From contig CAVYXA010000001.1 in NCBI GenBank assembly GCA_963772365.1, positions 704,001 through 768,000 on the forward strand: a stretch of 64,000 nucleotides of DNA, in the 5' to 3' direction. Origin of the DNA: an uncultured Verrucomicrobiae bacterium. GTDB lineage: Bacteria; Verrucomicrobiota; Verrucomicrobiia; Chthoniobacterales; UBA10450. Shown in pieces: positions 4,548-6,774 of this stretch. Position numbers and translations under genes: made by a program. The stretch's first letter is position 1. Every line of letters begins with the position of its first letter. The notes beneath the pieces are model-generated. The model saw only the letters and a program-made list of their open reading frames with translations, had not been told where the DNA came from and made no database searches.

Positions 4548-5121
4548 GAATCGATCAGTTGCCGGGCGAAATCTATATCATCGTTGTTGCTGGTGGCGAG
4601 TCGTTTCGCTTTGATCCCGCGGCTGTCCCAGATCACCCATCGCGCGGACAGCGGAAGGTAGTCTTTCACCAGATGCGCCCGGCTGCGCTTAAACCGCCGG
4701 CGGATATCGGCGACCGGAACGTCGTGACCGCCCATCCGTACGCGGCGGCGGACACGGGTGATCGCCTGCTCCGGACTGGCCAACCAGAGATAATGCAGTT
4801 CCAACTCGTAGCCGCGCGCCAGGGCGGATTCGAAGATGTGGATGTAAGTCTTTCCGCTCAACGTGCTCTCCAGCGCGAACGTCTCACGCCGAGCGATCGA
4901 CGAACGGACTTCGGTCAGAAGGAGGCGACCGGCTTTAAACTCCCCGGCGGCGGGATCGAGTGGTGACAAGCCTCGCGCGATTTCATCCGCATTATAAAAG
5001 CGGAGGCATTTCACCTCGTGCGGCAGAAATTCCTTCGCGAAGGTGGTTTTGCCCGCGCCGCCTGCTCGCGAAAGCGTTCGGAGTTGCAACCGGCGATGAC
5101 GTAGATGGTGGGGGCAGGCAT
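4544..5121 (-). pseudogene. Zeta-toxin/AAA_33-family P-loop ATPase disrupted by a 23-nt insertion in Walker A
   Basis: MPAPTIYVIAGCN[insert]GAGKTTFA...NADEIARGLSP...ESTLSG...RVRMGGHDVP. Removing 5061-5083 gives a 555-nt ORF (184 aa) with an intact GCNGAGKTT. Confidence 0.85.
5061..5083. repeat. Micro-insertion, family A (CCTGCTCGCGA-n-TCGGAG)
   Basis: CCTGCTCGCGAAAGCGTTCGGAG sits inside Walker A; related copies at 6622-6642 and about 55360-55383. Confidence 0.8.
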
Positions 5122-5194
5122 CGATTGTCGATCTTAGCAGAAAGTTCGTTTCGGCGAGACGCCCAAACCCACGCCCGAGCCGGGCGCGCTACCC
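5119..5194 (-). promoter_or_regulatory. REP-like element plus putative extended -10 promoter (TGCTAAGAT) 9 nt upstream of the ATG
   Basis: 5119-5170 is near-identical to 5916-5969. The minus strand reads ...CGAACTTTCTGCTAAGATCGACAATCGATG, with no Shine-Dalgarno. Confidence 0.5.
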
Positions 5195-5347
5195 ATTCGA
5201 ATAAATCTCCGCGCCTTTCTCGACAAATTCGCGGGCCTTGTGTTCCATGCCTGCCCGCAATGCTTCGTCCTCCGACAGTTTCTGTTCTGCGGCGAATTTG
5301 CGGACGCCCTCCGTAATTCGCATCGAGCAGAAGTGGGGACCGCACAT
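5189..5347 (-). pseudogene. thiC: thiC 3'-end relic (copy 3, 52 aa)
   Basis: Translates [52 protein letters not shown], matching the intact ThiC C-terminus [51 protein letters not shown]. Confidence 0.92.
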
Positions 5348-5381
5348 GATTGAAGAAGTGACGAGTGACGAGAATAGATGT

Positions 5382-5663
5382 CTACACAGGTGCGAGATCG
5401 GCGGCGACGTAGCGAGTTTGATTCAGCACGGCGTCGCTCGCTTCGACGGGAACCTGTTTGATGAGTTCGCGGATGCTGAATTCCTGCTGGCCGACAACTT
5501 CAATACCGATCACGTCGCCGTTGGCGTCGAAATCAAGCATAACCAAACCCTTATCCGATTCATGCCGCTCGGTGCGCGCGACTTTCGCATCGCGAAGTCT
5601 GATGTATGCCGCGGTGGCTTCCGTGTCGATCTCCACCACCGGTGGCTCGGTGATCGGAATCAC
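5382..5663 (-). CDS. DUF2283-family protein (putative antitoxin)
   Basis: [13 protein letters not shown]...[16 protein letters not shown] is the DUF2283 pattern; GTG start at 5663. Confidence 0.8.
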
Positions 5664-5670
5664 AAAATCT

Positions 5671-5918
5671 TTATTCTTCTTCCCCGTATCCGGTGATGAT
5701 CTAGCACTCATTAGCTTTTACTTCGGCTACGACAACGAGCATCTACCTTCAAACGCGCGGGAGAACAACCAGATGAAGCCGCCATGGTTTCCCTTGCGCG
5801 GCGGAGTCTTGAGAATCGATGCAGGCTGGTTAACGCTCAGCATTGCTTGCTCGACGGTGAAGCGGCGTTCGCGAGCGCGCTTTTCGATGTGCGCCGTATC
5901 GTGGAACGTGTAAGCCAT
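5671..5918 (-). pseudogene. DUF4258-like (RelE/BrnT-type) putative toxin with frameshift and internal stop
   Basis: MAYTFHDTAHIEKRARERRFT... (H-x3-R-x2-R pattern). It continues in another frame as MLVVVAEVKANEC*IITGYGEEE* and lies upstream of DUF2283. Confidence 0.6.
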
Positions 5919-6053
5919 CGATTGTCGATCTTAACAGAAGGAAGTTCGTTTCGGCAAGATGCCGAAACCAGGTCGCCGCGGCGACCGTTTCAAAGCCTCG
6001 ACCCAGCAAGGCGGCTACAGAGAATCGGCGCGACGGGCCGTCACGCCCTACCG
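5916..6053 (-). repeat. REP cluster plus second copy of the conserved leader/promoter (TGTTAAGAT)
   Basis: Matches 5119-5170; contains the perfect palindrome GGTCGCCGCGGCGACC (5971-5986) and GTAG-type REP ends. Confidence 0.65.
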
Positions 6054-6774
6054 TAAACTTCTGCGCCGCTCTCTGCGAACTCCGTTGCCTTCTGTTTCAA
6101 TCCTTCTTCGATCGCCTCTGAATCCGTGAAGCCATGTTCGGCCGCGTACTTGCGGACGTCCTCGGTGATCTTCATCGAACAGAAATGCGGACCGCACATG
6201 GAGCAGAAGTGCGCGGTCTTTGCTCCCTCTTGCGGCAACGTCTCGCCGTGGAACTCGCGGGCGGTTTCGGGATCGAGCGAGAGATTGAACTGATCTTCCC
6301 AGCGAAATTCGAACCGAGCTTTGCTGATGGCGTTGTCGCGGTATTGCGCGCCAGGATGGCCTTTGGCTAAATCGGCGGCGTGGGCGGCAATCTTGTAGGC
6401 AATCACTCTATCTTTAACGTCCTTTTTATTCGGCAGGCCCAAGTGCTCCTTTGGAGTCACGTAGCAAAGCATGGCGCAGTCGTACCAGCCGATCATGGCC
6501 GCGCCGATCGCGCTGGTTCTCGCCCCCAACCCTCGACCTGATTCCCGCCCGCCCTCTCCGTGATCGTAGCCGGGCGTCCCGCGCCTGCGGGATCGGTGGT
6601 GAGCGGATCCAAAGTGTAGAACTCCGATAAATCGCGAGCAGGCGGTGCTTCGTCGCACCACTCGAGTTGTTTGACGAAGTTGCTGCCCATCAACTTCGCC
6701 CGCTCCTTCGCGGACTTGCCCGTCCATGTCGCCTCATCCCGCTCGGCTCCATTCTCCATGTTCTCTTTGATCAA
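6041..6774 (-). pseudogene. thiC: thiC 3' relic (copy 2) with four internal insertions
   Basis: LIKENME[81 nt][10 protein letters not shown][21 nt][10 protein letters not shown][hairpin]PGYDH[42 nt][29 protein letters not shown]...[27 protein letters not shown]; the extreme C-terminus differs from the intact gene. Confidence 0.95.

Follow-up and report, generated by a model that had tools for sequence, protein, structure and literature searches.

How does a hairpin of little more than twenty bases come to lie inside the Walker A motif of a bacterial ATPase gene, and is it the same kind of insert that is seen in a decayed thiC copy and at the end of pth in the same stretch of DNA? In this study we analysed 64,000 nucleotides (the window; positions 704,001 to 768,000 of contig CAVYXA010000001.1) from the genome of an uncultured bacterium of the Chthoniobacterales, referred to below as the source genome or G000. 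The original prediction, made from the letters of the window, held that these inserts, which we call family A, are copies of an extremely small non-autonomous insertion element with a fixed tail and the target CCG^TT, possibly mobilised by an HUH enzyme of the RAYT or IS200 type. We asked whether family A moves, what it inserts into and which enzyme might be responsible. The features of the window are collected in Table 1.

Table 1. Family-A inserts, interrupted genes and the empty thiC site in the window
Feature	Position	Strand	Remark
Family-A insert, 23 nt	5061..5083	+	window reads CCTGCTCGCGAAAGCGTTCGGAG
Interrupted gene, 184-aa P-loop ATPase	4544..5121	-	Walker A GCN-GAGKTT split
Family-A insert, 21 nt, short-loop variant	6622..6642	-	reads CCTGCTCGCGATTTATCGGAG
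thiC 3' relic, holds the 21-nt insert and two other small insertions	6041..6680	-	
Empty homologous site CCG^TTC in intact thiC	10914..10919	-	gene 10389-12515
Family-A-like insert, 22 nt, last codons of pth	55362..55383	+	supplies new C-terminus

Results

The insert in the ATPase gene has the sequence and the position that were claimed for it. It consists of a 4-nt tail, CCTG, followed by a 19-nt hairpin with one bulged base, and its edges carry a one-base ambiguity. The insert frameshifts the Walker A motif; without its 23 bases the minus strand has an uninterrupted frame that starts with the ATG at 5121 and reaches its stop at 4544, so that deletion does restore the frame of 184 aa. An intact homologue scores above the Pfam cut-off for PF06414, a zeta-toxin-like P-loop ATPase, and a paralogue in the source genome (C1:197796-198292) is the empty counterpart. 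There are 18 loci homologous to this gene in the family, 14 of which are readable at the Walker A motif while 4 were left unread by it, and the site is empty in 12 of the 14. An 8.9-kb contig from the assembly of a DNA run (about 92% identity) aligns to 4402-5060, an alignment that ends at the edge of the insert, and was left out of the count of empty alleles. No relatives of the ATPase were found in the viral collection. In G207, a genome of another genus, a family-A copy with another loop and another tail occupies the identical base of the Walker A motif, and this homologue is only 59% identical to the ATPase of the window. A branch with 95/95 support separates the two filled genes in the ATPase tree, and each of them stands beside empty relatives, so these are two separate insertion events.

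The claims made for thiC were confirmed as well, both the 21-nt insert in the relic and the empty site in the intact gene. The 17-nt core of this short-loop copy is also found with a CCTG tail at an unrelated site (L031) of the congener G001. Compared with intact thiC the relic has gained 11 nt at 6578-6591, with a CCCGC..GCGGG hairpin that is present here as a single copy and recurs beside a GIY-YIG gene at locus L222, and an extra segment of 39 nt at about 6521-6560. Three consecutive thiC 3' ends are present (5189-5347, 6041-6680 and 10389-12515), and the toxin-antitoxin-like and restriction genes between them (DUF2283, EcoO109I-type, HNH, PIN, DUF433) give the region what looks like a history of repeated island integration at the thiC 3' end. 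The sole Rfam match over 4300-13000 is the TPP riboswitch of thiC. Both frameshifting copies of the window sit in dispensable DNA.

The related hairpin noticed at the end of pth also proved to be an insertion. It is made up of the tail TTCC and an unbulged hairpin of 18 nt (55366-55383), and 14 of 17 orthologues in the family are empty at this site (two of these come from the unpublished G003 and G008). Hairpins occupy this position in three genomes, a different one in each, and one of the three belongs to the sister type S described below.

Further copies, which were expected elsewhere in the genome, are indeed present and spread throughout the family. The strict pattern CTCGCGAA-N1-8-TTCGGAG has 17 copies in the source genome and 0 in each of 6 order-5 Markov genomes, so chance is excluded for the family; a looser pattern gives 20 copies in the source genome. 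Among 146 well-assembled genomes of the family, a set which takes in the unpublished genomes G008 and G217, 119 contain family A, with 954 copies altogether and a maximum of 59 in G001, and the reversed pattern, which served as a control, had no match in any of the 146. A first sample had the core in 21 of 24 family genomes and, elsewhere in the order, in 4 of 16; in a GTDB 20-mer scan, 78 of the 80 titled loci among the matches listed belonged to Verrucomicrobiota, mostly Chthoniobacterales / Ca. Udaeobacter. One orthologous insertion, upstream of purF, is kept in both G000 and G001. The short stem and variable loop that had been described stand up: most copies have a 7-bp stem with a single bulged base and a freely varying loop, and the 19-nt core is found in 202 of 217 sites that were gathered without fixing the flanking sequence. 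At the top of the stem, a compensatory change from A-T to T-A or C-G is seen in 6 of the 217. The fold of single copies is only weak, with energies of -2 to -4 kcal/mol and z values from about -0.4 to -1.1; the pth copy has a z of -3.2. When the ORFs neighbouring family-A copies were clustered, no gene family extended beyond 4 loci; the genes between close pairs of copies were mutually unrelated, with no mobiliser among them. The literature searched, which took in few subscription papers, yielded no description of family A and no paper on Udaeobacter and repetitive extragenic palindromes.

Some other sequence features were observed on the way. TGTCGATC occurs 2371 times in the source genome against 375 expected, a 6-fold excess that makes it a HIP1-like highly iterated motif, and attC-like 8-mers are over-represented genome-wide in G000. 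Y1 transposase domains lie in very long open frames of 904, 1372 and 1464 aa (G000 C1:531070-531348, within recG; L466 and L472).

Where exactly does the unit insert? We recovered empty versions for 49 of the 339 sites tried. In all 49 the insertion point is followed by T, and in 33 it is preceded by G. The commonest junction is G^TT (24 of 49), T^TT makes up 10 of 49, and the CCG^TT originally proposed as the target accounts for only 4 of the 49; the actual target is ^T, usually G^TT. In the larger set of 217 sites, the hairpin is followed by T in 88%. The tail is not fixed either, since CCTG is found in only 67 of 217 sites and CCCG in 29, beside many other forms. Its length was 4 nt in 21 of the 49 sites with an empty version, 5 nt in another 21, 3 nt in 3 and zero in 4, so that it is best described as 4-5 variable bases. 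The junction on the hairpin side is precise, and that on the tail side varies in sequence and hardly in length. A subclass of 16 of the 217 departs from the reported lack of target duplication: in these sites the tail duplicates at least 4 of the downstream bases (shuffled mean 1.7, maximum 7). A second family, seen in G001 (L030, L016, L049), has the same CCTG/CTCG start and a GGCGGG-ended hairpin; heptamer arrays are its insertion sites, with the same G^TT junctions.

Copies inside conserved genes mostly keep the frame, a bias that the original prediction had suggested looking for. With a net insert of at least 15 nt and a homologous reference gene required, 22 of 24 add a multiple of three bases (p about 4e-9 if the cases are independent; some genes recur in the set). 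This share is far above the expected one-third, which points to purifying selection, with frame-keeping inserts surviving in conserved genes. Family-A copies are also nested in one another and in other repeats, namely in their own loop, in the loop of S, in tandem dimers, heptamer arrays, attC-like sites and GTAG repeats. By rough regex classes, at least 94 of the 217 sites lie within recognisable repeats, and such copies are in part non-independent, since an insert can travel with the repeat that hosts it.

The sister hairpin S (CCCCGAAAGCTTTCGGGG) has a 12-base core in common with family A. It flanks small GIY-YIG genes and takes the place of the anticodon arm in partial tRNA copies. Among the best 30 loci, S lies beside the nuclease gene in 29, and a tRNA-Lys or tRNA-Met gene is present in 29 of the same 30. 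Pfam gives only PF01541 for the small protein. The S-linked nucleases form one clade with support of 100/96, on a short alignment and with a bootstrap that is not fully settled, and this tRNA-resident clade is separate from the clade flanked by TGTCAT repeats. S is also dispersed, usually with T or CT after it, and only three of its empty sites were recovered. At C1:377020-379069 the source genome contains tandem 321-bp units, each pairing a small GIY-YIG gene with a tRNA 3' half that bears a hairpin; at C6:195-615 (L297) it has tRNA-Lys and a small GIY-YIG gene (236-475, minus strand, for a protein of 80 aa) with hairpin-plugged partial tRNA copies on both sides. A and S are also fused into a 36-nt twin, which was seen at the unrelated loci L013, L038, L039, L361, L369, L377, L379 and L383; it is in frame in at least six genes, often directly after GATCGACAAC.

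Across the 146 genomes the number of A copies follows that of S with a rho of 0.70 (partial 0.67 given RAYT REP), against a rho of 0.33 (partial 0.19) for A and RAYT REP, so that copy number follows S much more closely than the REP; S and REP give a rho of 0.29, and all these correlations are overstated because the genomes are related. In two small genera A correlates better with REP than with S. Three of the 67 small GIY-YIG genes have a family-A copy on one side, within 350 nt, and all three belong to the S clade (3 of 34, versus 0 of 33 outside it); none of the 67 is flanked by A on both sides. A search for A in the anticodon-arm position of pseudo-tRNAs in 355 genomes and the metagenome collection found no case, its 5 matches lying in non-tRNA contexts. 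No match to the S-type nuclease query was present in 19 genomes with 10 or more A copies, five genomes have the nuclease and no A copy, and in the largest genus the median number of A copies is 9 with and 10 without the nuclease.

Discussion

We consider it highly probable that family A is mobile. Its description as a very small, non-autonomous, site-selective insertion element, in line with the original prediction, is well supported by the copies found throughout the family, by their clean empty sites, by the frame bias in genes and by the fact that one base was hit independently more than once. Is such an element without precedent? It was said to be smaller than typical MITEs or REPs, which is true, but the Nostoc SDRs of roughly 20 bp are an earlier case (PMC2884548), and family A is a new family of this known kind of element. 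Like A, the SDRs of Nostocaceae are described as dispersed elements of about 20 bp that insert precisely into a short target (PMC2884548, PMC4390886, PMC5861425). SDR5 inserts between bases 3 and 4 of HIP1 (PMC4390886, PMC5861425, PMC2884548), whereas the target of A is ^T/G^TT. The SDRs are described from Nostocaceae only (PMC5861425), and A belongs to the Chthoniobacterales, a group of a different phylum. Two features set A apart from the SDRs, again as these are described: its variable tail, and a sister hairpin that is linked to a nuclease gene. What the present case adds is the recurrence at one base, the measurement of tail length and the controlled comparison of candidate mobilisers.

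Other small repeats resemble family A in part. REPs and REPINs, which are linked to RAYT, are described as short imperfect palindromes, some of them in frame within genes, and intragenic REPs have been reported in the verrucomicrobium O. terrae (PMC3116915, PMC3733652, PMC8266576). Family A fits an imperfect palindrome of the REP type, 20-40 bp long. In contrast to REPs, however, it lacks a GTAG tag, occurs as single 23-nt units instead of doublets, inserts into REPs itself and flanks no RAYT gene (0 of 24 Y1 loci in four genomes); CGTC, the alternative REP foot tag, lies within 8 nt of only 18 of 217 copies. The RPE-1 elements of Rickettsia are about 150 bp long, much longer than A. Rickettsia palindromic elements share with it the property of being translated in frame within housekeeping genes, as reported (PMC3733652), but A is mostly intergenic and often 23 nt long, hence frame-breaking. 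MITEs have terminal inverted repeats of 15-30 bp and a length of 70-300 bp (PMC3733652), whereas the entire A unit measures 21-24 nt. The Ssn system with its NTS/SRM repeats resembles our loci in that a hairpin dispersed genome-wide flanks a small GIY-YIG gene (PMC11893778). Unlike the Ssn repeats, A is not the flanking repeat of its own nuclease, a feature which S displays at 29 of its best 30 loci. The degenerate SRM motif matched none of the 217 A copies, but it was also silent on likely positives, the TGTCAT repeats next to local Ssn-like genes (0 of 67 genes). The mobility of the NTS/SRM repeats is presented as a hypothesis, not as a result, in the description of that system (PMC11893778).

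What moves family A? We found no gene that has family A as its own flanking repeat, and can only infer the mobiliser. The reading we favour, with a probability that we put not far below even, is that A is copied in where DNA is single-stranded, following cleavage by the small tRNA-linked GIY-YIG nuclease or a close relative of it. SsnA is described as binding its hairpin as ssDNA and cutting a few bases upstream, in the variable flank (PMC11893778), and the length of the tail of A, 4-5 bases, would agree with a cut of this type. The enzyme may recognise the hairpin core CGAA-N4-TTCG common to A and S and, as SsnA does at its own repeats, would cut ssDNA a few bases 5' of the hairpin. The tail would then be a stretch of donor flank of fixed length. 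Host repair might then join this piece, or copy it in, via 1-4 bases of microhomology, which would leave either a foreign tail or a short duplication. In favour of this reading are the position of S at the nuclease genes, the co-variation of A with S and the nesting and fusion of the two; against it are the absence of A on both sides of any nuclease gene and from the pseudo-tRNA position, the A-rich genomes with no match to the nuclease query and the similar medians within the largest genus. To our knowledge the Ssn nucleases have been reported only as cutters, and we know of no joining step. A bolder version of the nuclease reading, which we consider conceivable though doubtful, is that the tRNA-resident clade of 80-residue GIY-YIG proteins drives transposase-free mobility with a single 23-base hairpin as its cargo, A being a variant of the nuclease's own hairpin that escaped from the cassette.

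Could the insertions come about with no dedicated enzyme at all? Host repair or template switching, possibly from a short RNA or cDNA, might patch nicks with the hairpin, which might then spread further by gene conversion among the repeats that host it. Some left junctions resemble microhomology joins or short duplications, no neighbouring gene family recurs, and at least 94 of the 217 sites lie in repeats, where conversion can copy an existing insert; yet the near-constant length of 23-24 nt, the fixed polarity (at 88% of the 217 sites the hairpin is followed by ^T) and the independent hits at one base of a unique gene are left unexplained, and we think this account unlikely. An artefact of assembly or sequencing, or a chance match, would have to accommodate hundreds of copies in independent assemblies, the frame-keeping bias and conserved orthologous insertions, and is extremely improbable, even if one or two of the 20 loose matches in the source genome are probably due to chance (presumably that at C3:28970, inside an apparent native AraC-type motif, is an example).

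Two alternatives remain. An HUH enzyme, RAYT or the TnpA of IS200/IS605, might act in trans, excising and inserting the bulged hairpin as ssDNA. There are 9 matches to Y1_Tnp in the source genome, GTAG-tagged repeats often receive A insertions, and the TCAA subclass of A resembles what we take to be right ends of the IS605 type. A bulged stem and insertion without duplication also suit the HUH substrates that have been described (PMC8266576). However, there is no family-A copy at any of the 9 Y1_Tnp loci of G000 or the 15 of its copy-rich relatives G001, G194 and G115, GTAG, described as essential for group-2 TnpA-REP (PMC8266576), lies within 8 nt of only 5 of 217 copies, the variable tail is ill-suited to a guide sequence and the A count follows RAYT REP less closely than it follows S. 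The HUH mobiliser suggested by the original prediction is therefore not supported, and we judge it quite unlikely. Very unlikely, in our opinion, is an integron integrase that treats the unit as a minimal cassette and places it at G^TT, although this is the commonest junction (24 of 49), an intact IntI is encoded in the source genome (C1:1249522-1250460) and 16 of 217 copies lie in attC-like sites. The minimum size of attC is far above the length of the family-A unit, and most tails are without an AAC box. Secondary sites of IntI are described as GWT (bioRxiv 10.1101/2022.09.11.507474), a rule that 25 of the 49 targets break, 10 of them being T^TT.

How elements of about 20 bases move has been an open question since the Nostoc SDRs. 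Family A offers clean material for it, with exact pairs of filled and empty sites, one base hit independently in two genera and a measurable tail length, and the favoured nuclease reading provides a candidate enzyme of 80 aa and short DNA substrates that are open to testing in vitro. If the tRNA-resident clade does drive the movement, this would be a system that writes insertions of 8-12 residues into the proteins of a very common family of soil bacteria. For the soil Verrucomicrobia, family A is a steady source of frameshifts and of short in-frame insertions.
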